Part shown: piece after piece, positions 3,036 through 40,114 of the stretch
How the letters are laid out: each line of letters starts with the position of its first letter
Numbering within the stretch: position 1 is the stretch's first letter
Source of the DNA: a virus
Direction: 5' to 3' (one strand)
Length of the DNA: 64,000 bases
Virus record (IMG/VR): IMGVR_UViG_3300036985_003303
Location: 1-64,000 of that record
Program-made: the position numbers and the translations under genes
Notes under the pieces: generated by a model
What the model was told of the DNA's origin: nothing
The model's database searches: none
Seen by the model: the letters and a program-made list of their open reading frames with translations, nothing else

Positions 3036-3587
3036 TTAACATGCAGCCCATGCAATGAATTTGTATAGACCTAATTTTTCAGTTGTTGACTTTTTATATG
3101 TGACAGTTGCACATTGACTATTGCCTTCAATAAGTTCTTTAGCAATAATTATTTTTACATTGACATCTGGATTAGCTTCAACATAAGTTCTTGCTTTTTT
3201 GATACAAACTGTTTGGCTTTTATCTCTTGCAACTTCTCGTTGATCCCATGTAGTTACTGCTTTGTATACAGTTTCCCACTTACGAGTTCCTTTTTGAGGA
3301 GTTACATCTACTTGAGATTTAACTTTGTTTTTATTTTCTACAGGTGTTTCCATGCAAAACCCCCAAGCTTCACGCTTACTTGCATTGTCTGCAATATATT
3401 CTTCAATATCTCTAAAACTTTTAGTTTTTGTCATTGAAGTAACATCTTTAGTCAAATCACAAGTATGTATTCCACCGGAGTAACCTTCTTGATGACCAAA
3501 GTAATCTTCATCATCTTGACATGCTCTTTTAAAAGCATCTTGAATATTTTTACCTCTTGCTGTTCTATAAATTAGTTCTGCTCCCAT
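3036..3587 (-). CDS. Hypothetical phage protein
   Basis: 183-aa ORF tightly packed in the operon. Confidence 0.7.
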   Translation of the reverse strand: MGAELIYRTARGKNIQDAFKRACQDDEDYFGHQEGYSGGIHTCDLTKDVTSMTKTKSFRDIEEYIADNASKREAWGFCMETPVENKNKVKSQVDVTPQKGTRKWETVYKAVTTWDQREVARDKSQTVCIKKARTYVEANPDVNVKIIIAKELIEGNSQCATVTYKKSTTEKLGLYKFIAWAAC

Positions 3588-4009
3588 TTTTGTTTTTCTT
3601 TAGTTTCAATTAATACTTCTGCTAATCTTACTGTTTCCGGATCTGTGGAATATAACATCCGTGTGACTGTAGTGTATTCTTCTTCAGTCATATATTTTTC
3701 ATTGACCATTTCTGCGGCAAAAGAACTATAAATTCTAGTTCTTTGATTTTGAGTGGTTGCTAATAGATCAGTATAGTTATATCCTTTGTTAACTTTGGAT
3801 TGAATTAACTTATCATATACAGCTCTAGCTTTATAAAAGGGTAAAGGACTTTCATTTTTAGTTCCATGAACCAAAGTATTACCTCTTCTCCCATAAGCAA
3901 AATTTATATTCCAAAGATTACTTTTTGGAATTTTACAAAGTTCAGCTTGATAAACTTTGTCTGATTTGTAATCCATATAATGCAAATTTGTAGTTTGGAT
4001 TAGTTCCAT
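3572..4009 (-). CDS. WGR-domain protein with C-terminal SxDxE motif
   Basis: SDKVYQAEL...WNINFAYGRRG...ARAVYDKLIQSKVNKGY is the WGR-domain pattern. Confidence 0.8.
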   Translation of the reverse strand: MELIQTTNLHYMDYKSDKVYQAELCKIPKSNLWNINFAYGRRGNTLVHGTKNESPLPFYKARAVYDKLIQSKVNKGYNYTDLLATTQNQRTRIYSSFAAEMVNEKYMTEEEYTTVTRMLYSTDPETVRLAEVLIETKEKQKWEQN

Positions 4010-4215
4010 TACATTGATGATTTTTCAATTATTCCTTTTAATGTTGTTGCGCCTAACTTGCACACATCTTCTTCATCTGACTTCAAGTACTGAAGGATTC
4101 TTTCATACTGTTCATCATCAACTAAGCCATTTCTTTTGGCAAAGTTTAGTCTAATAATATCTGGATCTCTTGGTTTTCCTGAGCCAAAAACTTTACCTAA
4201 ATCAATTGTGCTCAT
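4009..4215 (-). CDS. Small hypothetical protein with SxDxE-like motif
   Basis: 68-aa ORF whose stop codon overlaps the WGR gene start. Confidence 0.6.
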   Translation of the reverse strand: MSTIDLGKVFGSGKPRDPDIIRLNFAKRNGLVDDEQYERILQYLKSDEEDVCKLGATTLKGIIEKSSM

Positions 4216-4230
4216 AAACTTGAATAAATA

Positions 4231-4265
4231 AAAAGTGCGAGAAACTAGAAGAATCTCGCACTTTT
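4231..4265 (-). terminator. Intrinsic terminator (possibly bidirectional)
   Basis: AAAAGTGCGAGA-11 nt-TCTCGCACTTTT perfect 12-bp stem just after the 4281 stop. Confidence 0.75.
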
Positions 4266-4280
4266 GTTAAGAATTGGTGC

Positions 4281-4685
4281 TTACTTTTTAGCCTTAGCTC
4301 TTGCTGCTTCAGGATTGATTACATTGCGGAAAGGAAAAGTATCTGCATTGTCTGCAAACTTTTCTACAAAAGCAATAATATCATCTTCATTTACAAGTGT
4401 GTACTCATAAAAAGTTTTGATTGCTTTTCTTTCTTCTTTGTAGTTCTTACCTACAACTTTTCGGCCTTTAGCAATTGCTGTATCTCCGTTGTCATCTAAC
4501 TTAGGAAACAAATGGAATGTATCCTTTTGGACTGTAGAAATAATTGCTAACTGTTTTTGATCTGGCACATAGATACACTCCACGAATGGACAAGTTTCAT
4601 TTGTTCTGATCATGCTAAACGTTGGCATGCCTCTGTGATCTTGCACAACTAACATCATGCTTTTTTGGTTGGTGTTTTCTGACAT
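4281..4685 (-). CDS. Hypothetical phage protein
   Basis: 134-aa ORF followed by a terminator. Confidence 0.7.
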   Translation of the reverse strand: MSENTNQKSMMLVVQDHRGMPTFSMIRTNETCPFVECIYVPDQKQLAIISTVQKDTFHLFPKLDDNGDTAIAKGRKVVGKNYKEERKAIKTFYEYTLVNEDDIIAFVEKFADNADTFPFRNVINPEAARAKAKK

Positions 4686-4694
4686 AGTATTTTC

Positions 4695-5720
4695 TTACAA
4701 AGATATTAAATTGTTTGCAAATTCATAAGGTAATGTAAAGTCTTTGCTTGTAATGTGATAATTGATTTTCTTGTTTACCATGTGGAACAATTCAGTAAAA
4801 TACTTTTCCATTGATGAATCTTCTACTGGAAAGCAATACACATCATTGTTTTGGTCAACCACAATAAAGTGAAAAATGATTTTGTAATCAAACGCGCGGC
4901 CTCTGAGTAAACTTTCAGCAAGAATCTTGTAGATGATTGGTTGCAACCAGTACTCATACTTTTCTGCAGATGTAACAAAGTCTTTTAGTTTTCCACCGTG
5001 CGTTTTAACATCACTGATATAAACAGTTTTGCTTTGGCGATCAACTTTGATTACATCCATGATACCTTTAACACCATACTGAAGTTCATCTGGTCTATGA
5101 GATAACTCAATTTCATATCGGACTTCATCATTTTCATTCACTGGTTTAAGCAAGAAGTTTGCTTTTTCACATGCAAGAATTGCTTCTGCTTTTGCATAGC
5201 ATTTATCCCATGATGCAACATCTACAATTGTTTTCTCGCGTCCTTCTACCATGATTCTAAAATACTCAATTGAGTTTTCAGTAATGATTTTTTCTATACG
5301 CTTTTCATCACCTGTTTTGAATGGAGCTTTCTTGTCATCTACTAATGATTGATGCAAGTTTACTTCTTTCAAGTAAGCAATGATTTCTTCATGATACTCA
5401 TCTAATTCAGATGCATCTCTTGCTAAAGATAAAAGATGTTCTATACAAAGACGAGTACTATCTGTAGGAACAGATATTCCCATGTTGACAAACTTTTCTT
5501 TGAGTTGTTCTGGTTCAAGAACCATGCAGTGAACTAATGATCCTTCATCAAAATGCTTTCCTGTTTTCACATCTTTCTCACCTAATACATAGTGTTTGAA
5601 ATATGTTTTTGGAGATTCAAGCATTAGCTTTAATGCACTTGGGCTGAGCATTAGGTTCTCAACATTAGCAAAGAATGCATCATAATTCATTTGCTGTACT
5701 TCATTTAACTCTTGTTTCAT
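4695..5720 (-). CDS. PD-(D/E)XK exonuclease, RecE/ExoVIII-like
   Basis: LSPSALK, GSLVHCMVLEP, KGIMDVI, SDVKT, YWLQPIIY motifs. Confidence 0.85.
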   Translation of the reverse strand: MKQELNEVQQMNYDAFFANVENLMLSPSALKLMLESPKTYFKHYVLGEKDVKTGKHFDEGSLVHCMVLEPEQLKEKFVNMGISVPTDSTRLCIEHLLSLARDASELDEYHEEIIAYLKEVNLHQSLVDDKKAPFKTGDEKRIEKIITENSIEYFRIMVEGREKTIVDVASWDKCYAKAEAILACEKANFLLKPVNENDEVRYEIELSHRPDELQYGVKGIMDVIKVDRQSKTVYISDVKTHGGKLKDFVTSAEKYEYWLQPIIYKILAESLLRGRAFDYKIIFHFIVVDQNNDVYCFPVEDSSMEKYFTELFHMVNKKINYHITSKDFTLPYEFANNLISL

Positions 5721-6688
5721 TTTCTTTTTAGTTTTAATTTGAAATCAAATACTGAACTCTTTTCCAGTTTTGGATGGTAATAGTTATCTGCAATCCTTTC
5801 TAGGATTTCATTTGAAGCATACCCAAACTTTTGTTCATACTCTTTTACAATAGTATCAGACCTTCTTTTGATTCCTGTTTCAATGTTGAATGCACCTTTT
5901 AATAAAGGAAGCACTGGAACATTTGGATTGTTTCTACGGATGTTGTCATCCATGTGATTAATCAAACAGATTAACTCTACAAAAGAATCATTTGGATTAA
6001 TAGTATTGAGCAAAGTCAATGCTACTTTTTCTGAGTCTTGTGATTGCAAAAGCATTTTGATTTTGTTTGATTCTTCAAGCGTTATACCCCGGTTTTTAGC
6101 ATGGTTCAAGACTTCTTTTAACTCAATAGCTTTTTTGTTAGTAGGTATAATCATTCCAGATAAATTAACAACGTTGTTTACATCATGATTGTCACCTCTA
6201 TCCCATTGAGTTTGTGATTGCCTCCAGCTTGATCTACCATAATGTTTGTATGTCATTTGAACATAGTCATCTTCAGAAATCAAATCAAATTCTAATGCAT
6301 TTTGTAATAGTTGTTTTGCTTTTAGACAATAACTATCCCAAAAATCTAATTCTAATACATCTTTAACTTTTTGAAGACAGTACTTTTCTGAATCTTGATG
6401 ACTAAAAACATAATAGTCACAACCAAGGGCTTGAACTTTTCCAGATAGTAATTTAGCATCTGTCATTAGATACTTTCTTACCGCTAAATTAACATAGAGT
6501 GTTTTAGTTTTGTCTTTAACAATACTTTCTACATCTTCATTAATTATTTTTTCATTGATAAGTGCTGCCGTACTTGAATCAAAAATCAACTTATTGACTT
6601 TTAAATCAGTGTCATGGCATTCATAATCGTCAAGAACTACCGCGAAACAAGTCCGCGGTAGTGTCACAACATTTATTGATGAAATCAT
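5717..6688 (-). CDS. Hypothetical protein with internal SxDxE motif, downstream of MoxR
   Basis: 323-aa ORF overlapping its neighbours at both ends. Confidence 0.7.
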   Translation of the reverse strand: MISSINVVTLPRTCFAVVLDDYECHDTDLKVNKLIFDSSTAALINEKIINEDVESIVKDKTKTLYVNLAVRKYLMTDAKLLSGKVQALGCDYYVFSHQDSEKYCLQKVKDVLELDFWDSYCLKAKQLLQNALEFDLISEDDYVQMTYKHYGRSSWRQSQTQWDRGDNHDVNNVVNLSGMIIPTNKKAIELKEVLNHAKNRGITLEESNKIKMLLQSQDSEKVALTLLNTINPNDSFVELICLINHMDDNIRRNNPNVPVLPLLKGAFNIETGIKRRSDTIVKEYEQKFGYASNEILERIADNYYHPKLEKSSVFDFKLKLKRK

Positions 6689-7884
6689 TATTCTAAAATT
6701 ACATTTACAAATTCATCTTCAAGCATAAGTACATTGTATTTGTTGCTTGAGTTGACTACTTTCTTAGCCAATACAAACTTCAAGTCAGATCCTAATGCTT
6801 TACCAACAACCAAATCTTTTACTCTTTCAATAAATGCAGGAGTAATTTCTTTGTCTTTCACGGTATGAACCATGTGGTTAATCAATCTGGTAGTTAATAC
6901 ATAACCAAGATCAGCTCTGTAGTCTTTACCTTCTTTAACCAACTCTTTGATTTTAACTTGAATAGTATCAAAGCTAACTTTTGTATCCAAAATTTCAGCA
7001 GGTGAAATCATTTTATCCAACTTATTATGGATGAATGATGTAAACATTGTTGTAATTTCTGGACCAACTGCGCCTTCACCAATGTTCTGGATAAGCATCA
7101 GTTGTTTGTCAAAGTCCTTGATTGTTCTTAAAGAATTGTAGAACTTCACCAAACTTCTTGGATTTACTACAGGATTGTCATCTTTGATAATCTCTTTACC
7201 ATGTAACAAAGTAAAGTTAATTGCACGTTGGTCAATACCTGATTTTTCAGCCCACTCAGCCCAAACTTCTGGCTCCCATCTCATATCAAAGGTAATGTAT
7301 CTTGACTTTGCAGCAGCATCAATGTCTGTTACATTGTAAGTACCGTCATCTGGATTTTCTGTAAGAAGAATAGTCCACCCTTTTGGTAACGCCCAAGAAA
7401 TGTAGCGTTGCTTGTCAATGATTTCCATTACAGCTTGCATAAAGCGTGGTGCTGCTCTAGTGTAATCATCTAAGATAAGTACACCGTTTTCTCCCTTACC
7501 TGCAATCCAAGCTGGCTTAGCATAGCTCATTCGGCTTTGTCCATTAGCTTTCCATCCCTGTGCAGCAAAGGAATCCATGACTTTTTCATCAACCCATTTA
7601 CCCACTTGTGTATCGCCTTGCTTAGCAACCATCTGATATTCCTTAATTGGAATACCAACTAAGTCACCTAACTCATCTAGCTGAGCTAAGTTGATAATTT
7701 CTACATGTTTTATATTTAGCTCTTCAGCTAATTGTTCCACTACGGATGTCTTTCCTAATCCTGCTGCACCACAAATTGAGATAGCAACTGGTTTCAATCC
7801 ATCTTCTTGGATTGCTCTATTGTTTGTAATCAAGTGAGTCAATGTTTCTTTTAACTCTTTGCTGTTTAACTGTACTTTGTTCAT
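6688..7884 (-). CDS. MoxR-like AAA+ ATPase
   Basis: Walker A GAAGLGKTS, Walker B LILDD, TENP sensor, NPRS; likely start MNKVQL at 7884; adjacent VWA gene. Confidence 0.85.
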   Translation of the reverse strand: MNKVQLNSKELKETLTHLITNNRAIQEDGLKPVAISICGAAGLGKTSVVEQLAEELNIKHVEIINLAQLDELGDLVGIPIKEYQMVAKQGDTQVGKWVDEKVMDSFAAQGWKANGQSRMSYAKPAWIAGKGENGVLILDDYTRAAPRFMQAVMEIIDKQRYISWALPKGWTILLTENPDDGTYNVTDIDAAAKSRYITFDMRWEPEVWAEWAEKSGIDQRAINFTLLHGKEIIKDDNPVVNPRSLVKFYNSLRTIKDFDKQLMLIQNIGEGAVGPEITTMFTSFIHNKLDKMISPAEILDTKVSFDTIQVKIKELVKEGKDYRADLGYVLTTRLINHMVHTVKDKEITPAFIERVKDLVVGKALGSDLKFVLAKKVVNSSNKYNVLMLEDEFVNVILE

Positions 7885-7901
7885 AACTCTTAATTTAACT
7901 T

Positions 7902-9131
7902 TTAATTTAACTTGATTGTTTTTCCTGGTAAATGATCTGTGTCCTGACATTTTGTAGATAATACCCACAACATGTTTTTAACTGGCGCATTTGGAGCAGG
8001 ACATTCTCCATCTGTAAGATAAATGAGTGTAGTGTATTTCTTTCTGTGTTGTATGTAATAATCTACAACAGGATTGAAATCAGTACCTCCTCTTTTCTTA
8101 ATAACCAAAGGAATGTTTGGTCTATATTTTACTGGATCTTGCATCTGTGTGTCTGCAAAAACCAATGTAAAATCATGTCCACACTTGTACATGTGGTGAA
8201 TTTCATGCATAAACTCTTTAATTTCATCATCAGATACTGAAGCAGAACTGTCAATTGCAATTAAGATGGTTGAAAATTCCTGAACTTTGATTCCAAAATC
8301 TAATTCAAACCGCTTGCTTTGTTTTCTTTTGGTTTTACGCATGCTGTTTTTAGAACTGTTCCCAATGTATCTTCTCAAGTAAGCTTTCCAATTAAACTTT
8401 GGTGGTTCAATTACTTTTAAAGCTTCTAACTTTTGTAAGACCTCTCTAGGTATCGTACCCCGCATCTTTTGCACTTGCTCAACAACTTCATCCAACATGA
8501 CTTCAAGTTGCTTGTCAACGAGTTTCTGTTGTGTTTCTGATAGGTCATCGAAGTCATCCCATTGGTGATTAGGAACACGCATGTTGTTTTTACCTTGATT
8601 GGTTACTTGCATAGATCCATTAGCAACAGCATCTTTAATGGCATCAAGTAAACTTTGACCTTGTCCGCTACCTTTACCTGTTCCTGGCCCATTTCTTTCA
8701 CTTTCTCTGTTTAGTTTTTCATAGTAAACATTTGTTCCTTCGTCAGGAAGCAAGTCATAATCACTAAATTTTTCAAGTGTACAGCCATCTGGTGGTAAAT
8801 AATTGGGATCAATCTTTTGATTAATCTCAACATCTTGTGCAGTATTTGCTAACTCATGGTTTTTGAGATGCTTGTATTCTGTAATATGAAAGAATGCAAT
8901 ATGCATTAATTCGTGCTGAAGCAAACCTTTCTTCTGGTCTTCAGACAATGTTTGCCAAAATTCCGGATTAATATACAACTTGTAGTTGATTCCTTCTAGT
9001 CCAACACCGGCTGTTGGTACTTTGTCTGTCCATTCTTTGTTAAGATTTAGAAGCAGTAGCCCATAAAATGGCTGTTCTAGCATTAAGTCTTTACAAATCT
9101 TCGTGAGATTTTGTTGGAGGTTTACTGACAT
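7902..9131 (-). CDS. DUF2201-type metallopeptidase-like plus VWA domain protein (MoxR partner)
   Basis: LLQHELMH (HExxH), MIDAS-like DSSAS, RGGTDF, YLTDG. Confidence 0.85.
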   Translation of the reverse strand: MSVNLQQNLTKICKDLMLEQPFYGLLLLNLNKEWTDKVPTAGVGLEGINYKLYINPEFWQTLSEDQKKGLLQHELMHIAFFHITEYKHLKNHELANTAQDVEINQKIDPNYLPPDGCTLEKFSDYDLLPDEGTNVYYEKLNRESERNGPGTGKGSGQGQSLLDAIKDAVANGSMQVTNQGKNNMRVPNHQWDDFDDLSETQQKLVDKQLEVMLDEVVEQVQKMRGTIPREVLQKLEALKVIEPPKFNWKAYLRRYIGNSSKNSMRKTKRKQSKRFELDFGIKVQEFSTILIAIDSSASVSDDEIKEFMHEIHHMYKCGHDFTLVFADTQMQDPVKYRPNIPLVIKKRGGTDFNPVVDYYIQHRKKYTTLIYLTDGECPAPNAPVKNMLWVLSTKCQDTDHLPGKTIKLN

Positions 9132-9513
9132 TTAACTGTGGTATTTGTGATTTAATTGATTTTCTTATCTCTGAAGTCCATGTACTTGACATTAAACTGT
9201 AAAGATATTCATTGTAATAAACAAAGAATTTTTCTATACTTGAATGTGAAGGACAATTATTTTGAATGTAACTTACCATTTTAGCTAAACACTCCATCGC
9301 TGGAGTATAAGATGGCCATTCTAACAGATCTGTCATTTTTTTATCCAAGTCTTCATCTGCTTTAATTGAACTTTTGATTGGTTCTAAAGTCAAATACCAA
9401 TATAAAGCATTGTCTTTGTCTAACACAGATAGCAGTGCTAGTTGACCAAGCTTATGGTTTTCTACATCTTTGGATTCAAGAAGTCTTTTTATTTTTTTCT
9501 CCTGCGATTGCAT
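9091..9513 (-). CDS. Hypothetical protein with N-terminal SxDxE motif
   Basis: 140-aa ORF between primase and VWA gene. Confidence 0.7.
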   Translation of the reverse strand: MQSQEKKIKRLLESKDVENHKLGQLALLSVLDKDNALYWYLTLEPIKSSIKADEDLDKKMTDLLEWPSYTPAMECLAKMVSYIQNNCPSHSSIEKFFVYYNEYLYSLMSSTWTSEIRKSIKSQIPQLNVSKPPTKSHEDL

Positions 9514-10474
9514 TTTTTAGGATTGGGATTAAAAATACTTTTGTGCTTGCAACACCATGTTGCTTGACACATTCTGCAATGTCTTTTTCTACATTGAAAT
9601 AAATGTAAGATATATCATACAAATCTTTGTAGTGTTTCATTGCTTTCATGCCTGCGATGTCATTGTCAAATAGAGTGAATACAAATTCATATTCTTGTCG
9701 GTACTTGTCAATCTGTGCTTGAGTGATAGTAACATTCTCGCTGTCGGGAGCTACAAGCTCAATCTGATTGAACTTGAGTGCCTTGAATGCACCGATGTCT
9801 TTCAGAGATGATGCAATGATTAGACAACGCGCCTTGTATGTGAGTTGTTCTTCACCTTGCGTATATTCTCTAAGCTTTAAGAACTTTGCTACCTTTCGCG
9901 TTGGCTGATAGATTTTGCATAGCTCTCCTGCATTATTGAAATAACCATAACACATGTTCTGAGCAAAGTTCATTTCTTCTACTCCGTCTTCTTTTGTAAT
10001 GGTAATGGTATATTCTCCTAGTGGCTTTATGTTATAGTTCTTTAAGAAAGAACCACCTATTCCAAATTGTTTCCAGAACGCAGCATCAGCATTAGTCCAT
10101 TTACGGATTGTGTACTTGTTGACTTCTCTGATTTCTTTGGAGGCGGTATTAATGTATTTAGGGATTTCTGTATCATTCTTAAAAAGATCTAGGATTTGCC
10201 TATAGCCATTTTGCCTATCTGATAAGTTGTAGAGTTCTAATACTATATCAACAGCATCACCATAGTTCCCTGAAGAAAAATCTTTAAAGCGATATATTTG
10301 TTCATCATCTGAGAAAAACAAAATCATTGAAGGATCATTGTCTGCCTTGTTAAAGATAGATTTGATTTTAACTGACTGTCCTTCTAATGCTTCTTCAAGA
10401 TTTAAAATTCTTTCCATGATCCTGTTACTAGGTATAGGAAAGTTTTTGTTAGTGTAATAAACTGTGTGTATCAT
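9476..10474 (-). CDS. DNA primase (TOPRIM, DnaG-like)
   Basis: FKDFSSGNYGDAVD, IIASSLKD, LFDNDIAG (TOPRIM DxD); replication context. Confidence 0.8.
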   Translation of the reverse strand: MIHTVYYTNKNFPIPSNRIMERILNLEEALEGQSVKIKSIFNKADNDPSMILFFSDDEQIYRFKDFSSGNYGDAVDIVLELYNLSDRQNGYRQILDLFKNDTEIPKYINTASKEIREVNKYTIRKWTNADAAFWKQFGIGGSFLKNYNIKPLGEYTITITKEDGVEEMNFAQNMCYGYFNNAGELCKIYQPTRKVAKFLKLREYTQGEEQLTYKARCLIIASSLKDIGAFKALKFNQIELVAPDSENVTITQAQIDKYRQEYEFVFTLFDNDIAGMKAMKHYKDLYDISYIYFNVEKDIAECVKQHGVASTKVFLIPILKNAIAGEKNKKTS

Positions 10475-10483
10475 AACTAAAAT

Positions 10484-10515
10484 AAAAAAGGCGGGCTAAA
10501 TTAATAACCCGCCTT
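10484..10515 (-). terminator. Intrinsic terminator
   Basis: AAGGCGGG-12 nt-CCCGCCTT with an A-run on the plus strand, after the SSB-like gene. Confidence 0.7.
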
Positions 10516-10531
10516 GTGTTATTGGAAAAGA

Positions 10532-11317: not shown

Positions 11318-11352
11318 AACTTTTCTTTTTTTTACTAGTTAATAATTACTGT

Positions 11353-30408: not shown

Positions 30409-30500
30409 ATGTTCCCCACATCATTATACATTATATTTTTGATTTACCCACATCATAATACTCTCTGGATCCATATTACCCAAAATTTGTATTTTTGTCT

Positions 30501-30803
30501 ATGGACTATTCAAATATGTGGTGGAATGATGCTATAGAGATTCCTCTAATGGTCAAGCATATGCAGATAATAAAGCATTTTGAAAAGAAGTATGGTGTGG
30601 AAGTTAACAGAGAAATGACTTTTGTAGAATCTAAGTACATAGCAGATGCTATTACACAAATCAAATTTCTAAAAGTTCGGAAGATCATAGATACCAACAA
30701 AGCCTGTACGTTGTTTAGGCTAGTCTGCAGTACGGATCAAGAGAGTAAGCAGATGGGATTAGACCTAATGCAACAGCTCAAGGCCAAGGCTAGAAAAAAA
30801 TAA
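30501..30803 (+). CDS. Hypothetical protein with C-terminal SxDxE motif
   Basis: First plus-strand gene; TATTTTTG box at 30490-30497 immediately before the ATG. Confidence 0.65.
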   Translation: MDYSNMWWNDAIEIPLMVKHMQIIKHFEKKYGVEVNREMTFVESKYIADAITQIKFLKVRKIIDTNKACTLFRLVCSTDQESKQMGLDLMQQLKAKARKK

Positions 30804-31488: not shown

Positions 31489-31491
31489 GTT

Positions 31492-31986
31492 ATGATAAAG
31501 CCGGTAATTAGGAAAGTTAAGTTAGAACAAGGCATTGCTGATGTTTCTACTGGAGAAATCCTTCCACATTCCACAACCATCAATGTAGTTGACAAAGATC
31601 TAGTGATTGTTCACAGCGATGAGTATGTGATCATAGATAGTTCAGCTCTTCAGTACATTCTTCAGAACTTTAGCCCGGTAGACTACGGCAGGATCTTGAA
31701 AATGGCGGACATGACCAATGGTGTGTACAATATCTTGTACCACAACCGCCAAATTCCGCATACTGACGCTACACTTATGGAGCAATTGCAGTACACGCGC
31801 AACAAGTACGCTGACTTTATGAAGAGGTTGTACCGCAAGAGTGTGATCAGTTACATTCATACTGTTAAAGATGGAAAAGAGATGAAGTACATTATGCTTA
31901 ATCCCAACTTGGCTAGGAAAAGAAAGACAATTGACAAGAATTGTCTAACATATTTTGATGAACTAGGAACTAAAAGCGGGTTATAA
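31492..31986 (+). CDS. RepL-like / winged-HTH DNA-binding protein
   Basis: HTH-like LMEQLQYTRNKYADFMKRLYRKSVI followed by YIMLNPNL as in RepL-type proteins. Confidence 0.5.
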   Translation: MIKPVIRKVKLEQGIADVSTGEILPHSTTINVVDKDLVIVHSDEYVIIDSSALQYILQNFSPVDYGRILKMADMTNGVYNILYHNRQIPHTDATLMEQLQYTRNKYADFMKRLYRKSVISYIHTVKDGKEMKYIMLNPNLARKRKTIDKNCLTYFDELGTKSGL

Positions 31987-32324
31987 TGAAAGGATTACCA
32001 ATAACATCATTTGAGGGAGGAGATATTTTATTTAGTCTGAGCGATATGAATGAACAATGGCTTTATAGAAACGGAGAGTTAGAAAAAATGACAAGTTCCG
32101 CATCTGACTTTGAAATAAGAAAACCTTTGCCAAATGAATTGTTTCTTAAAATGGCAAGATCAACAGGAGATGAAGTAGCTATAAAATTATATCAAGCATT
32201 AGTTGATGAATGGATAACTGAAACGGAGCATGACAGATTTTCAAAAATGTTAGATTCAAGAGATCCTGAAGCGCGCCACTTGGTTAACTTGCTTTTGAAT
32301 AGACGCATAAATGAATTAAAATGA
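31986..32324 (+). CDS. Hypothetical protein with C-terminal SxDxE motif
   Basis: 112-aa ORF; ITETEHDRFSKMLDSRDPEARHLV. Confidence 0.65.
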   Translation: MKGLPITSFEGGDILFSLSDMNEQWLYRNGELEKMTSSASDFEIRKPLPNELFLKMARSTGDEVAIKLYQALVDEWITETEHDRFSKMLDSRDPEARHLVNLLLNRRINELK

Positions 32325-32466
32325 AAGTATTTTACAAAGTTATAAATGGATTTAAAGTTAAATTTTATTGCAGTTATTTCTGTATTGGCATTGGAATGGA
32401 TCAGTTTACTCCAGTTTACCATAGATATATTACTGGACAATCATTGGGACCTGTTAAAAATGAAGT

Positions 32467-32883
32467 ATGTGGATACAAGACGGAAAAGAGTTTACTGAAG
32501 AAATGATTCCAGAAGGAGCAGTCGGTTTTATATATGAAATGATGGCAATCATTGATGGGAAATCGGTTAGATACATTGGTAAGAAGAACTTCTATGCTGA
32601 TGTCAAAACTAAACTGGCTAAGAAAGATATTCCTACAGACAAAAGGTTGAAGACTTACAAACGTGTGAGAAAAACAACCTACAAAAACTATTTCAGTAGC
32701 AATGATGTCTTAAAACAAGCGCACAAAGATGGAGTAGTTATCCGCAGAGAGATATTGCAGATCTGCTTTGGCAAGCAGGAGTTGTCTTACTTTGAATGTA
32801 AGTTTCAATTTGGCTGGGGTGTACTTGAGAGTGATGAGTTTTTGAATGGTAATATATTGGGTAAATTTTATAAACTAAAATAA
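32467..32883 (+). CDS. GIY-YIG-like nuclease
   Basis: GFIY...YIGKK...YFSS...REIL...E...N pattern. Confidence 0.7.
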   Translation: MWIQDGKEFTEEMIPEGAVGFIYEMMAIIDGKSVRYIGKKNFYADVKTKLAKKDIPTDKRLKTYKRVRKTTYKNYFSSNDVLKQAHKDGVVIRREILQICFGKQELSYFECKFQFGWGVLESDEFLNGNILGKFYKLK

Positions 32884-33234
32884 ATGAAAAAAGAAACAAA
32901 GGACATGGGAGAAATCTCTGATGGCTACCACACATTTAATGAGTTGTATGCTTTTCGCAAAATGTACAATGCTGCGGCATTTAATGCTTGGGCTAAAGAA
33001 GGTCTTTATGATGTTCATAAATCCAAATGTCATAGTGATGGACTACCGTGCTTTGGTGGCGGATGGTTTATTGTCATGGCTGTATTGCCAGGTGGACAAG
33101 TAAGTAATCACTATCAATTAGAAGATTGGGATTTGTTCCAGTGTATAGAAGAACCATTTGTGAAATATCACTATGATGGCCATAGTGCGCAAGATGTGTT
33201 GGATCGTTTAGAAGAAGTTTGTAAAATCAATTAA
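32884..33234 (+). CDS. Conserved phage protein (SDGYHTF...DGH type)
   Basis: ISDGYHTFNELY, HSDG, GWFIV, GQVSNHY, WDLF, YDGH. Confidence 0.6.
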   Translation: MKKETKDMGEISDGYHTFNELYAFRKMYNAAAFNAWAKEGLYDVHKSKCHSDGLPCFGGGWFIVMAVLPGGQVSNHYQLEDWDLFQCIEEPFVKYHYDGHSAQDVLDRLEEVCKIN

Positions 33235-33235
33235 A

Positions 33236-33559
33236 ATGGAAAAAAAAACATTGGGTAACACCACAGCAAGTAAAGCTAGAGAGAATGTTAAGGACATTCA
33301 GTTCTGGGGAAATGGAGATACATTTAAACTTATTGCTAAAGCTTCAAGCGTTAATGAGGGTTGGATGAAATCAACTAAAGCAATGCAGGCTGGTTCGTCA
33401 GTTGTTGTACAGGTTACAACCCAACAAAGAAATCCTGATGGATCTTATGCGGTAGCTGAAGCTTTAACAACAGTTCCTAATGCGGAGATCATTGAAAAGG
33501 TAGATGGAGAAACAGGAGAAGTGGTAGACCGCTATATCCAATATAGATTATTCAATTAA
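33236..33559 (+). CDS. Hypothetical phage protein
   Basis: 107-aa ORF, GWMKSTKAM motif. Confidence 0.65.
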   Translation: MEKKTLGNTTASKARENVKDIQFWGNGDTFKLIAKASSVNEGWMKSTKAMQAGSSVVVQVTTQQRNPDGSYAVAEALTTVPNAEIIEKVDGETGEVVDRYIQYRLFN

Positions 33560-33576
33560 ATAAACAAAAAATAGTT

Positions 33577-33858
33577 ATGTTATACCAAGGAAAAATTGTC
33601 ATTTTAGACAAACCGGCTTATGAGCCAAAAATTAAAGGATTAGAACTTAGTCCAGAAGCGCAAGCATCTATGGAAGCTGATCTTGTTAAGCACTACACGC
33701 GACTAACTGTACATGCAGTTGGTGAAGATGTAACTTTCTGTAAGGCAGGAGATGAAGTGTTGGTTACACCTCGTCAATTATCTTACTGTGATGTAGTAGA
33801 TATTGAAGGAAAAACAAAGTTTGTTGCTAAAGAAGCAGATTGCATTGGCAAGTACTAA
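33577..33858 (+). CDS. groES: GroES/Cpn10-like co-chaperonin
   Basis: TVHAVGEDV..CKAGDEV....V.IEG..K...KEADCIG matches the Cpn10 barrel. Confidence 0.7.
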   Translation: MLYQGKIVILDKPAYEPKIKGLELSPEAQASMEADLVKHYTRLTVHAVGEDVTFCKAGDEVLVTPRQLSYCDVVDIEGKTKFVAKEADCIGKY

Positions 33859-33880
33859 TTAGTGTTAAACTATAAATGAA

Positions 33881-33909
33881 AGGTCTTGGTTACTCAAGGC
33901 CTTTTTTTT
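33881..33909 (+). terminator. Intrinsic terminator
   Basis: AGGTCTTG/CAAGGCCT plus T-run; TATATTTG promoter box follows at 33913. Confidence 0.75.
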
Positions 33910-33978
33910 GTTTATATTTGTTGCATAAGAGAAAACTTTTTTGTATATTATATACATTGTTTATTAAAATTAGAGATT

Positions 33979-34437
33979 ATGTCAATTATAAATTCAGACG
34001 GTTTAAATACCAACTGGCAACTTAATGTTTTGAAAGGCCTTCAAGGTATCATAGATGAACTCAATTCAACTATAAATGTTAATGGTAGTGTAAATGCCAA
34101 CATTGTTTCACCATTAGGTATTCGAACAGAAACAGAAAGTGTAAGTGTTGCATTGTCTTCAGAACAATGGAGAGAAATTATTAGACCTGTTTTAATTATA
34201 TCTTCAGGAGATATTCCAACACTCATAACTGCGAAACCTCGTTCTATATCTTTTGCTAGTAATGGTACAGATCCCGCATTAGTATCATTTGATAGCGGTG
34301 CAACTTATGAGCAAATTCCTCCAGGAACTACATTAAACATGGATGCAGGAGGAATTGCCAATTATTATGAAGTTGACACCTTTGGGTATGATACATCAAC
34401 TGATGGAGCTTCTTTGATCATTACATATAATTTATAG
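33979..34437 (+). CDS. Putative virion-associated protein
   Basis: Likely start MSIINSDG at 33979; beta-rich composition. Confidence 0.55.
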   Translation: MSIINSDGLNTNWQLNVLKGLQGIIDELNSTINVNGSVNANIVSPLGIRTETESVSVALSSEQWREIIRPVLIISSGDIPTLITAKPRSISFASNGTDPALVSFDSGATYEQIPPGTTLNMDAGGIANYYEVDTFGYDTSTDGASLIITYNL

Positions 34438-34439
34438 TA

Positions 34440-35003
34440 ATGAGTACTCAAATTCATTTAGACAGGTATTCATCAAATCCTAATGGGTATTTGAGTAGAT
34501 TGTATACACAGAATAACTCTAGTACTCCTGTAACAGCTACGGATGATGAAGGTAGTTTATTAGATGGGGGGTTAGGAACTCTTACTATTCCTGCAAATGG
34601 ATTTCAAAAAGGGGATAGCTTTAAAGGAGTGCTAATAGGTCATTTATCTTGTGTAGGTACAGCTACTTTACAAATTAGAGTTAAAACAGCATCAGGAATA
34701 CCATTAGCTGACACAGGTGCAATGGCAATGAATCTTACTACTAATAAACATTGGAAACTTGATGTTGATTTTACTGTAAGACAAATAGGTGCAGCTACTG
34801 TAGCTTCTATAGCATCAGGAGGATTGTTTGCTTATACCAAAAATTCTGGGTTTAACTTTGAAGGTGTAAATTTCAGCATAGTTAATAATTTAGATTTTGA
34901 CACTACTGTAGATAATACACTTGTTATAACTGCTCAATGGAATACAAATAACGCAGGAAATTCTATTTACTCAGAAATCTTTACATTAAATAAGACATAT
35001 TAA
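34440..35003 (+). CDS. Putative virion-associated protein
   Basis: Gly/Thr/Asn-rich, beta-sandwich-like. Confidence 0.55.
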   Translation: MSTQIHLDRYSSNPNGYLSRLYTQNNSSTPVTATDDEGSLLDGGLGTLTIPANGFQKGDSFKGVLIGHLSCVGTATLQIRVKTASGIPLADTGAMAMNLTTNKHWKLDVDFTVRQIGAATVASIASGGLFAYTKNSGFNFEGVNFSIVNNLDFDTTVDNTLVITAQWNTNNAGNSIYSEIFTLNKTY

Positions 35004-36397
35004 TGAGCACAAATATATATAGAAATTTGCCAGGAAATGTACATGATGCGGCAGTTAATAGTAACGCGCCATCTGGTACAAATCCTTTTGCAACAGAATT
35101 AGATCTTGCAAATATCAATAATGTAGGAAATGCTAATTTATTAATAAGCGGTGGAGCGTCATGGTCTGGAACAGGACTTATCTTTAATACCACAGCTCTT
35201 ACATTTCAAATATCTGGAATTGTTTATACAGCAAATCCACAAACTATAACATTGCCTGCAAGCAACCCAACAAATCCTAGATTTGATGCAATAGTAGTAG
35301 ATGAAGCAGGTACAGTTTCTATAATATCAGGAACTGCTGCAGCAAATCCACTTACTCCGGCAATCAATGAAACATTTGTTCTTTTGCAATATGTATTAGT
35401 TGGAGCAGGTGCAACTGTACCAACGGTAACAAATGAATTTGTTTACAGAGATGGATCTAGTCCAGACTGGTTGCCAGTGTCGGTACCAGGAACAGCTCCT
35501 TTATTAGTTGCAAATTTTTCAAGTACTTTTCCTGCACCTTTTCAAGGTTCTGAATGTACTCTTGTAAATGCTCCTACATATAATGCAGGAAAGTATATTC
35601 AATATACAAAACCTGTTGGTACTATACCTAGAGCAACATTTGCTTTTTTATCATTTAGAGTTAATCTACCTGCAACCTTAGCTGCAAGAAATATTCAAGT
35701 ATCTCTTTTCAATGGAACTACTTTGATAGGATCTGTTCAAGCTACAGCTTGGGGATTAAATATGAGTAGTATAAATAACTGGCAATTGGTTTCTATTCCT
35801 ACAGGAGCATTTGGAAATGTTGCCATTACAACAATGACAAGGATTAGACTTTTTCTTACAGGTACAACAGCAAATACTTTTTCTACAGGAATAGATAGGT
35901 ATGCAGTTGATGATGTAAAATTTCAATCTGGATTTGGACCACAATCAAATGTAGCGACTATAGATATAGAAGCTAACGGGACTCCTATTGGATCTACAGC
36001 TAAGTTAAGTTTTATGCCAACAGTAGGAACAACATGGCAACTAACAAATGATTTAGTTAACAATAAAATAGAAGTAAGAGCTAACTCTATAAATGCAAGT
36101 GTTTTTCCTGAATTGGTAACACTTGGTAGGAATTTAGTAACTACGGATGCTGGGAAATTTTTAATGGTGGATTCAATAAATCCAGAAACTATGACTGTTC
36201 CATTAGGTAGCGTTGTTTCTATTCCTATAGGAAGCGTTATTAAAATTGCTCAACAAGGATTTGGTTCTGTAACTATAGCTGCTGCAGTAGGTGTAATAGT
36301 GTTATGTTCAGGTCCATTTATTATTCCTGGTCAATATAGAGTTGCTACATTAACAAAAACGGCTATAGATACTTGGTATTTAGAGTACAGTATATAA
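35003..36397 (+). CDS. Tail fibre/adhesin-like protein with carbohydrate-binding-like domain
   Basis: WQLVSIPTGAF...IRLFL...YAVDDVKF jelly-roll pattern; C-terminal fibre-type domain. Confidence 0.55.
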   Translation: MSTNIYRNLPGNVHDAAVNSNAPSGTNPFATELDLANINNVGNANLLISGGASWSGTGLIFNTTALTFQISGIVYTANPQTITLPASNPTNPRFDAIVVDEAGTVSIISGTAAANPLTPAINETFVLLQYVLVGAGATVPTVTNEFVYRDGSSPDWLPVSVPGTAPLLVANFSSTFPAPFQGSECTLVNAPTYNAGKYIQYTKPVGTIPRATFAFLSFRVNLPATLAARNIQVSLFNGTTLIGSVQATAWGLNMSSINNWQLVSIPTGAFGNVAITTMTRIRLFLTGTTANTFSTGIDRYAVDDVKFQSGFGPQSNVATIDIEANGTPIGSTAKLSFMPTVGTTWQLTNDLVNNKIEVRANSINASVFPELVTLGRNLVTTDAGKFLMVDSINPETMTVPLGSVVSIPIGSVIKIAQQGFGSVTIAAAVGVIVLCSGPFIIPGQYRVATLTKTAIDTWYLEYSI

Positions 36398-36408
36398 AAT
36401 AAAATAAA

Positions 36409-36954
36409 ATGAAAGGTGTTTGTTGTAAAATAGTAATGAGTGCTGGATATAAAGACACAGCACATTTTATAGATAGTGCATTTCACCCAAATATGGCAGG
36501 ATTTGCGGTTGGAGCTAGTACAATACTAGCAACCATTGCTTATTATTTCAATGTAATATTTGGCATAGAATTACCTGTAGGAATAGTTTTAATAGTCTTA
36601 TTTGGCTTAGAAATGTTTACCGGAATCAGAGCCTCTAGAACAGAGAACAAAACATTTGACTCAGAATTATTTGGAAAAGGTTGGTTAAAGTTGTTAATTT
36701 ACATGATAATGATTGGATGCTCCCATGCATTAGCTGTTCATGTTCCAGTAAAAACTTTTTTTAGTTGGGACTTTAACATTTATTCATGGTTGCATTATGG
36801 ATTTTATAACTTTGTACTGATAAACTTGATTTGGTCTAATTTAGAAAACTTTAAAAGACTTGGTTGGAATGAATATGTACCAATACTAAAGCAGTTGTCA
36901 AAGTACATTAAAGATGAACCTAAAACAAAAAATGATGGAAGAGAAAACAATTAA
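36409..36954 (+). CDS. Holin-like membrane protein
   Basis: 3-4 TM segments, LEMFTGIRAS, SNLENFKRLG; upstream of endolysin. Confidence 0.7.
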   Translation: MKGVCCKIVMSAGYKDTAHFIDSAFHPNMAGFAVGASTILATIAYYFNVIFGIELPVGIVLIVLFGLEMFTGIRASRTENKTFDSELFGKGWLKLLIYMIMIGCSHALAVHVPVKTFFSWDFNIYSWLHYGFYNFVLINLIWSNLENFKRLGWNEYVPILKQLSKYIKDEPKTKNDGRENN

Positions 36955-37159
36955 AGAAAGATGGAAAGCAAAAACACCAAAATTTTGGAAGAAAATGCAA
37001 AGAATTGGTATAGCAGCTGGAGTACTAGGCGGAATCCTTTTAGCTTCTCCTATAGCACTACCTGCGGCAATATTGACTGGAGCGGGTTATCTGATTGCAC
37101 TTGGTAGTGCAACTGCAACATTATCACAACTTACAGTTGAAAACCCTGAAACAAAGTAA
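36932..37159 (+). CDS. Small two-TM holin-like protein
   Basis: RWKAKTPKFWKK followed by two hydrophobic helices. Confidence 0.55.
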   Translation: MMEEKTIKERWKAKTPKFWKKMQRIGIAAGVLGGILLASPIALPAAILTGAGYLIALGSATATLSQLTVENPETK

Positions 37160-37161
37160 TC

Positions 37162-37455
37162 ATGGCAAAGAAAAAAGTTGAAGATTTCAAAGTGGATGTT
37201 GATACCAAGAAGGTAGATGTTCATGTAGAAAAAAAAGATGGCGGTTTTAAAGCTGAAGTCAATACTGAAAAGGTTGATGTAAAGTTTGAAAAAGGAACAA
37301 CTGGATCAGATTTTGATTTAGATTCTAAAAAACTTGACATCCATGTAAAAAAAGATGAAAACGGAACTACTGTTGAAGTAGATGCTGCAAATGGATTCTT
37401 AAAAAAGATTGGTAATCTTATCTCAAAGATTTTTGTTAAGAAATTTAACAAGTAA
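37162..37455 (+). CDS. Lys/Asp/Val repeat protein in lysis cassette
   Basis: Three ~20-aa repeats of the type D(T/S)KKVDVH.EK. Confidence 0.6.
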   Translation: MAKKKVEDFKVDVDTKKVDVHVEKKDGGFKAEVNTEKVDVKFEKGTTGSDFDLDSKKLDIHVKKDENGTTVEVDAANGFLKKIGNLISKIFVKKFNK

Positions 37456-37458
37456 AAA

Positions 37459-38145
37459 ATGGGAGAGTTAGATCTAAAAAAAATCAAGCAGGTTCCTTTA
37501 TCATCAGGTCAATACATTGATGAAGAAGTTAAAAAGGTTCAAATTGTTTTGCACCATACTGCTGGAAATTCATCTGCACCTGCAACTATTAAGATGTGGG
37601 ATACAGATGACAGAGGTAAAATTGCAACATGTATTGTAATCTCTGGAAAAGGTTTGTCTAAAGATACCTTTGATGGAGAGATTTGTCAAGCATTTGGTTC
37701 TAAAAAATGGGGTTATCACTTAGGTCTTAAACAAGATATTTTTAGATCTAAAGGTGTTGCATACAAATCCATTGATCCTATAGCTATAGGTATTGAGATA
37801 TGCAACTGGGGACCATTAGATAAAGTAGGTGATAAGTATTACAACTATGTGGATAGAGAAGTTTCTGTTGACCAAGTTTGTGTATTAAGCGCGCCTTACA
37901 AAGGACATCTATATTATCATGCATATACGGATGCTCAGATTGAATCAGTGCGTCAGCTGTTAGTTTACTGGAGCAAGATCCATGGAATTGATTTGACTTA
38001 TAACGAAGACATCTGGGGTATATCAGTTAGAGCTTTAAAAGGAGAGAATGGAGTTTTTACTCACAACTCATACCGTAAAGACAAATCTGATGTTTCTCCA
38101 CAACCAAAGTTAATTGCAATGCTTAAAGCATTAAAGAATGGCTAG
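37459..38145 (+). CDS. Endolysin, N-acetylmuramoyl-L-alanine amidase (Amidase_2)
   Basis: IVLHHTAG, IGIEICNWG, YTDAQIES, GVFTHNS..KDKSD. Confidence 0.9.
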   Translation: MGELDLKKIKQVPLSSGQYIDEEVKKVQIVLHHTAGNSSAPATIKMWDTDDRGKIATCIVISGKGLSKDTFDGEICQAFGSKKWGYHLGLKQDIFRSKGVAYKSIDPIAIGIEICNWGPLDKVGDKYYNYVDREVSVDQVCVLSAPYKGHLYYHAYTDAQIESVRQLLVYWSKIHGIDLTYNEDIWGISVRALKGENGVFTHNSYRKDKSDVSPQPKLIAMLKALKNG

Positions 38146-38431
38146 AAACTCATTAGCAGGTAAGTCTACTGGAACCAGTAAGTCTGCAAAGTATTTTGCT
38201 TCTAATCCTGAAGCGCGTAAGAAAAAGAATGAATACAACAAAGAGTATCATTCAAGTCCTTCGCGTATCAAATATAGAGAGCAATTAAATGAAGCTAATA
38301 GAAAATCTGGAACTTATGGTAACAAAGATGGCAAAGATAAGTCACATACTAAAAAAGGAACATTAGTAAATGAGAAAGCTTCTACAAACCGCGCTAGAAA
38401 TGGTAAAGGAAACAATGCTAGAAAAAAATAA
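38138..38431 (+). CDS. Basic hypothetical protein
   Basis: 97-aa Lys/Arg-rich ORF followed by a terminator at about 38461-38489. Confidence 0.65.
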   Translation: MARNSLAGKSTGTSKSAKYFASNPEARKKKNEYNKEYHSSPSRIKYREQLNEANRKSGTYGNKDGKDKSHTKKGTLVNEKASTNRARNGKGNNARKK

Positions 38432-38549
38432 ACTCCCCTTTGAATTTTATTTCATTGGCTAAAAGCACTTAGGAATAGGTGCTTTTTTTATTAAACATTA
38501 AATAGTTAAACATTTATTATTATATTTGACATAATAAACATTAAATATT

Positions 38550-38816
38550 ATGTCAGAACAAACCAACCAAGAAGAACGCGAGTACACTCCACAAGAGATA
38601 CGCGCCATGCAAGAAAAAACACTTGCATATTACAGGAGTCAAGAAAAGGTTCTTGCTACTCAATGTATTGTTGAGGAACTAAAAGCTCGCATTAAAAAAG
38701 CACAATTTGAAGCATTTGATTATTCGCTAAGAATGATGCAAATTAATCAAGCTATGCAGGATGCAGCTGAAGAGGAAGAAAAAGAAGCAAAAGAGTCTGA
38801 AACAAAAGAAGAGTAA
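38550..38816 (+). CDS. Coiled-coil hypothetical protein
   Basis: TATATTTG box at 38521 upstream. Confidence 0.65.
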   Translation: MSEQTNQEEREYTPQEIRAMQEKTLAYYRSQEKVLATQCIVEELKARIKKAQFEAFDYSLRMMQINQAMQDAAEEEEKEAKESETKEE

Positions 38817-38818
38817 TC

Positions 38819-39202
38819 ATGGCAAAAGCACTAGTTGTTAACAAGCAAGTGCCGCTATCTTTGATTGAAGTAATTAAGTTTCAAATAAACATGTATTGCT
38901 TCATAAATAAGATTAGGTTAAGTCCGGCACAATTAGATTGTTTGTCTTTATTGGGATTATACGGTGAAATGAACATGTCAGATTTCTGCAATGAAGTTAT
39001 TTCTGAAGAGATCTTTGGCAATGTTCAGACTACAAGAAACTTTATCACAAAGTGTGTAAAAGAAGATTTGGTAACTAGAAGTGGATTAGGAAACAAACTT
39101 GTTACATTAAACAAAGATTTGGAACTATTGACTGAGGGAACTATATTACTTAATTTAAAAGTATATCATCTTGAAACCGACCAAGGGCAAAGAGCTAATT
39201 AA
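38819..39202 (+). CDS. Putative winged-HTH protein
   Basis: LSPAQLDCLSLL...VQTTRNFITKCVKEDLV. Confidence 0.5.
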   Translation: MAKALVVNKQVPLSLIEVIKFQINMYCFINKIRLSPAQLDCLSLLGLYGEMNMSDFCNEVISEEIFGNVQTTRNFITKCVKEDLVTRSGLGNKLVTLNKDLELLTEGTILLNLKVYHLETDQGQRAN

Positions 39203-39566
39203 AAAAACAGCTCAAGAATTGAATTTACCAGAGGAGATGGTAAAAGATGTTGTTGAGTTTTACTATTCTATAGTAACTAGAAAGATTGAGAATTTAGAAA
39301 GTGCTACAATCTTTTTGCATGGATTAGGTACTCTTAGATTAAGCAGAAGAAAGCTTGAAAAGAATATTGAGAGAATGCAGAAATTATTGGAGAGTAATTC
39401 TCAAGAGGATTTTAAAAAAGTAATTAAGTTCAATCTTTCTAAAACACTATTGGACAGCAAAGTTAAAGGGTTAGAAATGTGTAATGAATACTATAAACCA
39501 TTATATGAAAAGCGTAATAAAAATTTGGAAAGCAAAAGGGCAAATCCTGGAGGGGATCAAGAATAA
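39171..39566 (+). CDS. HU/IHF-like DNA-binding protein
   Basis: ELIKKTAQELNLPEEMVKDVVEFYY...IFLHGLGTL. Confidence 0.65.
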   Translation: MKPTKGKELIKKTAQELNLPEEMVKDVVEFYYSIVTRKIENLESATIFLHGLGTLRLSRRKLEKNIERMQKLLESNSQEDFKKVIKFNLSKTLLDSKVKGLEMCNEYYKPLYEKRNKNLESKRANPGGDQE

Positions 39567-39831
39567 CATTTTCAAAAATGAGCATGTTGAAGAAATTGCC
39601 AAAGAAAGATGGGCTATCTGTGAACAGTGTCCAATAGTAGACAAAGAAGGAGATAAGTGTTTGGTTCCTGGAACCGGCCCATGTTGTGGATCTTGCGGAT
39701 GTAGCATGGGATTAAAACTAAGAGCACTTGGTTCTGATTGTCCAGAAGGTAAATGGGATGCAGTGTTGTCACATGAAGAAAGTTATTTACTACAAAAAAA
39801 ATTAGGAGATGACTCAGAACAAGAAAAGTAG
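39505..39831 (+). CDS. Cys-rich (Zn-finger-like) protein
   Basis: CEQC...C...CCGSCGC...K...CPEGKW. Confidence 0.65.
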   Translation: MKSVIKIWKAKGQILEGIKNNIFKNEHVEEIAKERWAICEQCPIVDKEGDKCLVPGTGPCCGSCGCSMGLKLRALGSDCPEGKWDAVLSHEESYLLQKKLGDDSEQEK

Positions 39832-40114
39832 TTTATATAATGCGGGTATTATGCCAATTGATCCTAGTGATGCACAAGGATTGTGGAGTCAAATAACTCA
39901 AGGTAGTACTATTCCTTATGATCCATACAAGACGGTATCAATTTCTGCAGATGAAAAAGAGTATTTGGAAACTATTGCTCTTGCTGCAGATTTGTTAGCT
40001 GGTGAAGTAATTTCATCTCAAGACTTTTTTAAGTTGAAACTATTACTTAAAAGTGCAGATGAAGAAGTAAGAAACACAGGTATCATATTTTTAAACCAAA
40101 AGGCAAAACTATGA
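39809..40114 (+). CDS. Hypothetical protein with C-terminal SxDxE motif
   Basis: ISSQDFFKLKLLLKSADEEVRNTG. Confidence 0.6.
   Translation: MTQNKKSSLYNAGIMPIDPSDAQGLWSQITQGSTIPYDPYKTVSISADEKEYLETIALAADLLAGEVISSQDFFKLKLLLKSADEEVRNTGIIFLNQKAKL

Follow-up and report, generated by a model that had tools for sequence, protein, structure and literature searches.

A predicted helical hairpin shared by seven proteins of an uncultured crAss-related phage and its association with a MoxR/zincin-vWA gene pair

The window considered here, 64,000 nucleotides in length, covers the first 64 kb of the one contig (117,346 bp, 34% GC) that constitutes the source phage (IMG/VR record IMGVR_UViG_3300036985_003303), and our subject is a short helical motif that recurs in seven of the proteins encoded in it. 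Terminase, portal, major head protein, DNA polymerase, DnaB-like helicase and Toprim primase genes are all found in the window. The large terminase subunit (TerL) shares approximately 25% identity with its counterparts in crAss-like phages of Flavobacterium and Bacteroides. A megablast search of both arms against GenBank phages gave no match, and there is no close relative among them; the phage is uncultured and crAss-related. The genes of the motif-bearing proteins, hereafter called carriers, are small and lie on both arms, outside the terminase-portal-capsid block (Table 1). On the minus strand of the left arm, the primase gene is followed by protein A, a fusion of a zincin-like metallopeptidase with a vWA domain, a MoxR-type AAA+ ATPase, protein B, a PD-(D/E)XK nuclease, a 134-aa gene, a 68-aa carrier and a carrier with a WGR domain. 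In this order the carriers A and B bracket the MoxR/vWA pair, as a preliminary description of the window had already pointed out.

Table 1. Motif carriers and the genes next to them (positions in the window).
Feature	Position	Strand	Motif	Wider motif span	Remarks
WGR-domain carrier, 145 aa	3572-4009	-	3620-3691	3590-3697	C-terminal motif tail
68-aa carrier	4009-4215	-	4051-4122	4021-4128	Ser 22 residues before C-terminus
PD-(D/E)XK nuclease	4695-5720	-			Pfam PDDEXK_1 2.3e-8
Protein B, 323 aa	5717-6688	-	6014-6085	5984-6091	Carrier; alpha/beta domain and all-helical domain
MoxR-type AAA+ ATPase, 426 aa	6688-7968	-			Pfam AAA_5 3.9e-5, above cut-off
Zincin-like metallopeptidase + vWA fusion, 409 aa	7902-9131	-			DUF2201_N 8.4e-17, DUF2201 1.9e-12, PhageMetallopep 6.6e-6
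Protein A, 140 aa	9091-9513	-	9445-9501		Carrier; helical; motif 9415-9513 at N-terminus; directly upstream of vWA gene
Toprim primase	9476-10474	-			Left-arm gene before protein A
102-aa carrier	30495-30803	+	30687-30758	30681-30788	Weakest copy; Ser 23 residues before end
112-aa carrier	31986-32324	+	32214-32285	32208-32315	C-terminal motif
101-aa carrier	39809-40114	+	40010-40081	40004-40111	C-terminal motif
Second PD-(D/E)XK-type nuclease	40111-40950	+			PDDEXK_1 5.5e-4, 20.4 bits vs cut-off 22; directly downstream of 101-aa carrier

All seven peptides listed in the preliminary description are present in open reading frames (ORFs) of the window, although the numbers attached to them are the low coordinates of these ORFs and not the motif sites. 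Leave-one-out hidden Markov models recovered five of the seven carriers as the top non-training match, at 9-15 bits (the 112-aa carrier at 11.1 bits, rank 1), scores that were reached by at most two matches in 50 shuffled proteomes; the 68-aa and 102-aa carriers failed this procedure. A profile based on relatives only, built without the window and near-identical loci, ranked the seven carriers as the top seven of the 647 six-frame ORFs of the 117-kb genome, with scores of 37.8, 33.3, 33.0, 28.0, 16.7, 16.5 and 8.5; the highest score among 20 shuffles was 6.8. Protein A scored 28 bits and the 68-aa carrier 33, and the 112-aa, 101-aa and 102-aa carriers, none of which has an orthologue in the training set, scored 16.7, 16.5 and 8.5, respectively. 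All carriers are thereby placed above every shuffle, the 102-aa carrier only just. The acidic positions of the 68-aa carrier are shifted (SDEED), and its orthologues in three related loci (L001-L003) retain the motif; for the 102-aa carrier, a matching copy is found in a 98% relative (G001).

Related loci provide a broader view of the motif. Using the MoxR protein, 53 such loci were fetched from IMG/VR, with identities from 98% down to 39%, and these were matched heavily by the first motif profile. A second-generation profile gave 84 matches of at least 10 bits in the 53 loci, all on the coding strand and none in antisense ORFs, which make up one third of the ORF residues in that comparison. 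At the DNA level the copies share only 42% identity, and TCN as well as AGY codons specify the invariant Ser, so that selection acts at the protein level; a DNA-level repeat was ruled out on the same grounds. The Ser and the Asp of the motif are at least 90% invariant, and the motif is kept in related loci even in carriers that BLAST does not detect, so that the conservation in orthologues by which the preliminary description proposed to judge it is found. The motif is genuine, and no other part of these rapidly evolving proteins is as well conserved.

Among 1.84 billion cluster representatives, a 35-column profile of the motif matched 494 proteins at E<=1e-3. These are mostly B-type proteins of ~380 aa with the motif near residue 210-250, together with some small proteins that have N- or C-terminal copies. 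Nearly all of the 150 best matches contain a single motif stretch, as does each carrier of the window, and no Pfam family was found in the database relatives of the motif. Copy numbers in the seven related records of at least 92% completeness are 7, 2, 3, 6, 3, 5 and 2. When 185,579 species genomes were scanned with the B family, it was seen in one place only, a phage-sized contig of this clade (L075, JBIPNK010000148.1, 117,852 bp) binned in a Chitinophagaceae metagenome-assembled genome (MAG) from a lake metagenome; three of the four motif matches of the MAG are on this contig. As a host hint, the sole one found, this contig is weak, given that binning can misplace phage contigs. No motif match was obtained in 40 other Chitinophagaceae genomes at E<=0.01, so that comparison with host proteomes leaves the motif unrefuted, nor, at E<=1, in 528 kb of sequence from four unrelated phages scanned over their whole genomes (one a crAss-like Flavobacterium phage, the other three carrying MoxR). 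The neighbourhood of MoxR was likewise free of the motif in an N4-like phage, a Vibrio phage and a cyanophage. The motif is restricted to this phage clade, and its profile (alignment A1) recognises the clade, an uncultured crAss-related group with genomes of ~110-125 kb.

Could the copies nevertheless reflect chance, or a compositional likeness of amphipathic helices in an AT-rich genome? The two leave-one-out failures and the weak pairwise BLAST E-values between copies would be in keeping with this. The ranking by an independent profile, the complete absence of antisense matches beside 84 on the coding strand, the number of database proteins found with so short a profile and the empty control genomes are not, and chance is refuted for at least six copies; as an account of the whole set it has virtually no prospect of being right.

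Two forms of carrier can be distinguished. Within A and B the motif opens a larger domain: hhalign aligned the A family (A4) with the B family (A3) at a probability of 98.5% (E 2.6e-15) over ~111 columns, the alignment starting at the motif, so that the two share a helical domain of ~110 residues whose best-conserved part is the motif. The AlphaFold2 (AF2) model of B, computed from a 106-sequence family alignment (predicted local distance difference test, pLDDT, 85; predicted template modelling score, pTM, 0.84), has an alpha/beta domain at aa 1-195 and an all-helical domain at aa 196-323 (5720-6103; residues 204-322 in the model). The latter begins with the motif (residues 200-235), modelled as a helix (204-214), a turn and a second helix (220-227). 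On this model, the module is probably a non-enzymatic two-helix hairpin consisting of a helix, an S-x-D-x-E/N turn and a helix. For the five small carriers, the Ser lies 24, 22, 23, 21 and 19 residues from the C-terminus, and the module there is accordingly a terminal tail. N-terminal, internal and C-terminal positions are thus all represented, as first reported. The carriers had also been called otherwise unrelated, which agrees with BLAST searches in which the motif was masked and nothing common was found among the seven, but not with the domain shared by A and B; similarly, the notion of a portable tag rather than a domain suits the five C-terminal tails and does not extend to these two proteins.

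The main B family, of ~380 aa and adjoining MoxR, has in its N-terminal domain (A3/A5, e.g., L044:4115-5290) a conserved block, YF.PGVNIPR.KLK...VRD...A..VF; the window's own B protein has lost this block. Only one of 30 A5 members touches BRCT in Pfam (E 0.004), which hints at a BRCT-like N-terminal domain in B but does not establish one. In one sub-clade of the related loci (L034-L036, e.g., L036:11260-11769), MoxR is followed immediately by a 169-aa protein whose motif is N-terminal; as a B-type protein is present too, there are two downstream carriers.

Searches for known relatives of the module returned little. Foldseek gave nothing against the PDB at E<0.1, a PDB sequence search with A5 gave nothing below E 0.49, Pfam and PHROGs searches with the seven carriers found nothing except WGR, and the helical domain of B matched only unnamed clusters in the ESM Atlas. 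A wide VIA structure search yielded neighbours at Z 3.2-4.0, below significance, which were nearly all ARM/HEAT proteins (including beta-catenin, designed ARM repeats, importin-beta and AP-2) and covered B residues 200-274 with 61-74 residues aligned. ARM/HEAT repeats likewise pair antiparallel helices, two at a time, through a short acidic capping turn; however, they are tandem solenoid repeats, whereas the hairpin occurs once per protein and has no Pfam HEAT/ARM match. Membership among generic HEAT repeats was rejected on these grounds, and the resemblance to a HEAT-repeat turn noted at the outset persists as a weak likeness of fold.

The same data bear on an explanation by paralogy without a common partner, in which a stable hairpin of a clade-specific helical domain was spread by duplication and fragment fusion and the carriers act separately. 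A and B are indeed paralogous in their shared domain, individual genomes have anything from 2 to 7 carriers, and S-x-D-x-E would fit a helix-capping turn of ARM/HEAT type, for which the backing is weak fold matches only. Against this, the tail is the sole recognisable part of the small, fast-evolving carriers and keeps a fixed distance of its Ser, 19-24 residues, to the C-terminus, a purely scaffolding role would hardly account for a lone hairpin on unrelated bodies, and the motif is tightly linked with MoxR/vWA. We regard paralogy of this kind as a serious but fairly unlikely account.

One small carrier has a recognisable body. The 145-aa carrier matches Pfam WGR (PF05406) at 3.6e-4 with 21 bits, just under the cut-off of 22, and it matches database proteins, most of them carrying PF05406, with E values of 3e-14 to 1e-5; judged by sequence, it is a WGR-domain protein. 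The AF2 model (pLDDT 90, pTM 0.57) places the WGR domain at residues 1-79 and helices at 82-103, 109-119 and 124-144, the tail being confidently helical and not fixed relative to the WGR domain. In fusions of WGR with an ATP-dependent DNA ligase (WGR + PF01068, ~350 aa), an N-terminal WGR domain that is 36-54% identical to that of the carrier is joined directly to the ligase, without the motif, whereas the phage protein has the hairpin tail in the place of the ligase. No PF01068 ligase domain was found in this phage genome, which suggests that the phage keeps the DNA-end-sensing half without the enzyme. The idea that bacterial WGR-LRR or DUF4132 proteins carry the motif did not hold up, as the relatives found were the WGR-ligase fusions, which lack it.

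The MoxR-type ATPase reaches 24.1 bits with AAA_5 (cut-off 22), and its GenBank relatives are labelled MoxR-like ATPase. Its partner, with 62.1 bits for DUF2201_N and 47.8 bits for DUF2201, has HELMH at residues 73-77 and a metal ion-dependent adhesion site (MIDAS) of the form D294-x-S296-x-S298. H73, E74, H77, D294, S296 and S298 are each at least 90% conserved among 44 orthologues, and, from these residues, both the peptidase and the MIDAS site are intact. The protein also matches PHROG 1314 at 2e-60; the label of this family, 'HNH endonuclease', looks like a misnomer, because Pfam and the conserved HExxH and MIDAS indicate a metallopeptidase with a vWA domain.

A pair of a MoxR AAA+ ATPase and a metallopeptidase-vWA protein is already known from group 2.2 jumbo phages, where it was proposed to be an assembly chaperone with peptidolytic processing (Iyer et al., 2021, Viruses, PMC7824862). 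The two-gene core, MoxR and a vWA protein with an N-terminal zincin, is the same in both cases, but that description covers the pair only, without a shared hairpin or flanking A and B (PMC7824862). The pair described here sits in a replication module between primase and nuclease; the role proposed in jumbo phages is in virion assembly and processing. Our literature search found no paper on DUF2201 with MoxR or on crAss-like phages with MoxR.

Such a pair invites the idea of a substrate or degron tag, according to which the C-terminal hairpin marks small early proteins for remodelling by MoxR or cleavage by the zincin, with A and B as adaptors or decoys. The intact and conserved HExxH and MIDAS, the five carriers with the tag near the C-terminus and the peptidolytic processing proposed for the jumbo-phage pair (PMC7824862) are all in agreement with it. 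The tails show no cleavage-site signature, though, and A and B hold the same hairpin inside a stable domain. MoxR ATPases, moreover, are known as remodelling chaperones rather than as unfoldases that feed a protease. A degron function is, on the whole, quite unlikely.

Of 44 related loci that could be examined for it, 39 have a carrier of type B directly downstream of MoxR, and 27 of 50 have a carrier of type A directly upstream of the vWA gene; where both flanks are available, one of the two at least is always present, which upholds the positional tie to the pair drawn in the preliminary description. Carriers are detectable by BLAST in only 7-8 loci as compared with 53 for MoxR; the motif persists in most of the 53 beside MoxR/vWA. 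Also, every fully searched MoxR-bearing related record holds the motif, and among the records reached via an unrelated protein, MoxR and motif are both present in three and both missing in two. The hairpins of A and B are more similar within a genome than between genomes (1.41 vs 1.15 BLOSUM units per column; permutation p about 0.0014, n=16), a result that is suggestive only, because the genomes fall in few clades.

The hairpin might also be a host-directed handle. The preliminary description had already named a host target as one option: the hairpin would bind one host protein (e.g., a polymerase, clamp or chaperone) and deliver several phage proteins to one hub, which would accord with carriers that are small and located on both arms outside the terminase-portal-capsid block. 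This would leave both the adjacency of A and B to MoxR/vWA and the co-variation of their hairpins unexplained, and the sole hint of a host is the contig binned with a Chitinophagaceae MAG. We consider such a handle decidedly improbable.

Carriers also adjoin nuclease genes. On each arm, the start of a PD-(D/E)XK-type gene overlaps the stop of a carrier by 4 nt (5717-5720 and 40111-40114), and the right-arm overlap read directly is ATGA; the two nucleases are not close paralogues. Given these overlaps on both arms, a common partner of the carriers could be recombination-related. Across relatives, the slot before the right-arm nuclease gene is occupied by zero, one or two tail-tagged small genes, with one or two of them in the slot of the 101-aa carrier in L058 and L060-L064. 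A Cys-rich protein of ~100 aa (CxxC...CC..C.C) is also seen in this slot (L054:4235-4543, L057:4489-4782, L058:3672-3971 and L064:14748-15047); it ends in ITEEEEDKL, which resembles the motif's first helix, with the turn and the second helix absent.

Taking these observations together, we propose that the hairpin is a coupling adaptor specific to this lineage, through which A, B and the tail-tagged proteins are attached to the MoxR/zincin-vWA module, an interpretation whose chances our analysis puts at about even. A and B would serve the MoxR/zincin-vWA machine as constant accessory subunits, with the hairpin opening their shared helical domain. The tail-tagged small early or middle proteins, including the nucleic-acid-binding WGR protein, would join this complex by means of their own hairpin, which would either touch the hairpin of A or B or dock on a single reader surface shared by all. 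A physical interaction, and an effect of the machine on the tagged proteins, are what we infer from this arrangement.

The principle of such coupling has a precedent, and the idea of an undescribed protein-addressing system put forward in the preliminary description is overstated in this respect. Effector-associated domains (EADs) of bacterial MoxR-vWA ternary conflict systems are small helical modules of which one copy resides on a component linked to the core and further copies on other proteins encoded in that genome, and they were proposed to couple these proteins to MoxR-vWA cores by homotypic contacts (Kaur, Burroughs, Iyer and Aravind, 2020, eLife, PMC7159879). Both EADs and the hairpin are small, non-enzymatic and mostly alpha-helical, and have copies at N- or C-termini of proteins encoded next door or elsewhere in the genome, with a flavour that is lineage-specific in EADs and apparently also in the hairpin (PMC7159879). 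Also EAD-like is the presence of one copy on a constant component by the core, here on the flanking A and B and not on MoxR or vWA themselves, as well as a correlation of presence with the core, here with five tail-tagged proteins and 2-7 carriers per related record of at least 92% completeness, a small sample. The WGR carrier fits coupling of this type as well, since WGR is elsewhere fused to a ligase and here has the tail instead. There are, however, clear differences: EAD systems belong to multicellular bacteria and have vWA proteins with C-terminal effectors and a VMAP or iSTAND third component, whereas the present system belongs to a phage, has a vWA protein with an N-terminal zincin and is without such a component. 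EADs are furthermore attached to recognisable effectors and the hairpin mostly to tiny bodies, and the hairpin is likened to EAD1-EAD11 by description, not by sequence.

Several points weigh against a coupling adaptor. No motif was found on the MoxR or vWA protein themselves, and the sample behind the co-occurrence of MoxR and motif is small, most loci having been found through MoxR. The co-variation of the A and B hairpins comes from few independent clades, and gene conversion would give the same result. The 102-aa carrier is a marginal member of the set. Because carriers adjoin two PD-(D/E)XK nucleases, the partner could be a replication or recombination factor instead of MoxR/vWA. Finally, the conserved Ser and Asp may have a purely structural role, that of capping the helices at the turn.

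As an alternative to capping, we infer that the Asp might serve as an acidic ligand for the metal of the vWA MIDAS. Integrin I-domains and the vWA protein CbbO engage their ligands in this manner, via an acidic residue at the MIDAS metal. In a bolder reading, the hairpin would be an address label that is read by the phage's own MoxR/zincin-vWA, directly or through A and B; we regard this as less likely than not. If it were true, the virus would encode an addressing system that picks a changing set of small early proteins, along with a WGR DNA-end sensor, to be remodelled, assembled or cleaved at a given time. Both the MoxR and metallopeptidase-vWA pair in phages (PMC7824862) and the EAD coupling principle (PMC7159879) are already known; coupling by the hairpin would extend the shared-adaptor logic of EADs from bacterial conflict systems to viruses. 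Given that MoxR-vWA pairs are widespread in phages, a module present on flanking and other proteins also offers a testable list of candidate clients or subunits.

One further gene lies close to a right-arm carrier. A SegE-type GIY-YIG homing endonuclease gene (32467-32883, plus strand; Pfam 1e-17) is located ~140 bp 3' of the 112-aa carrier, from which it is separated by a 61-aa ORF.

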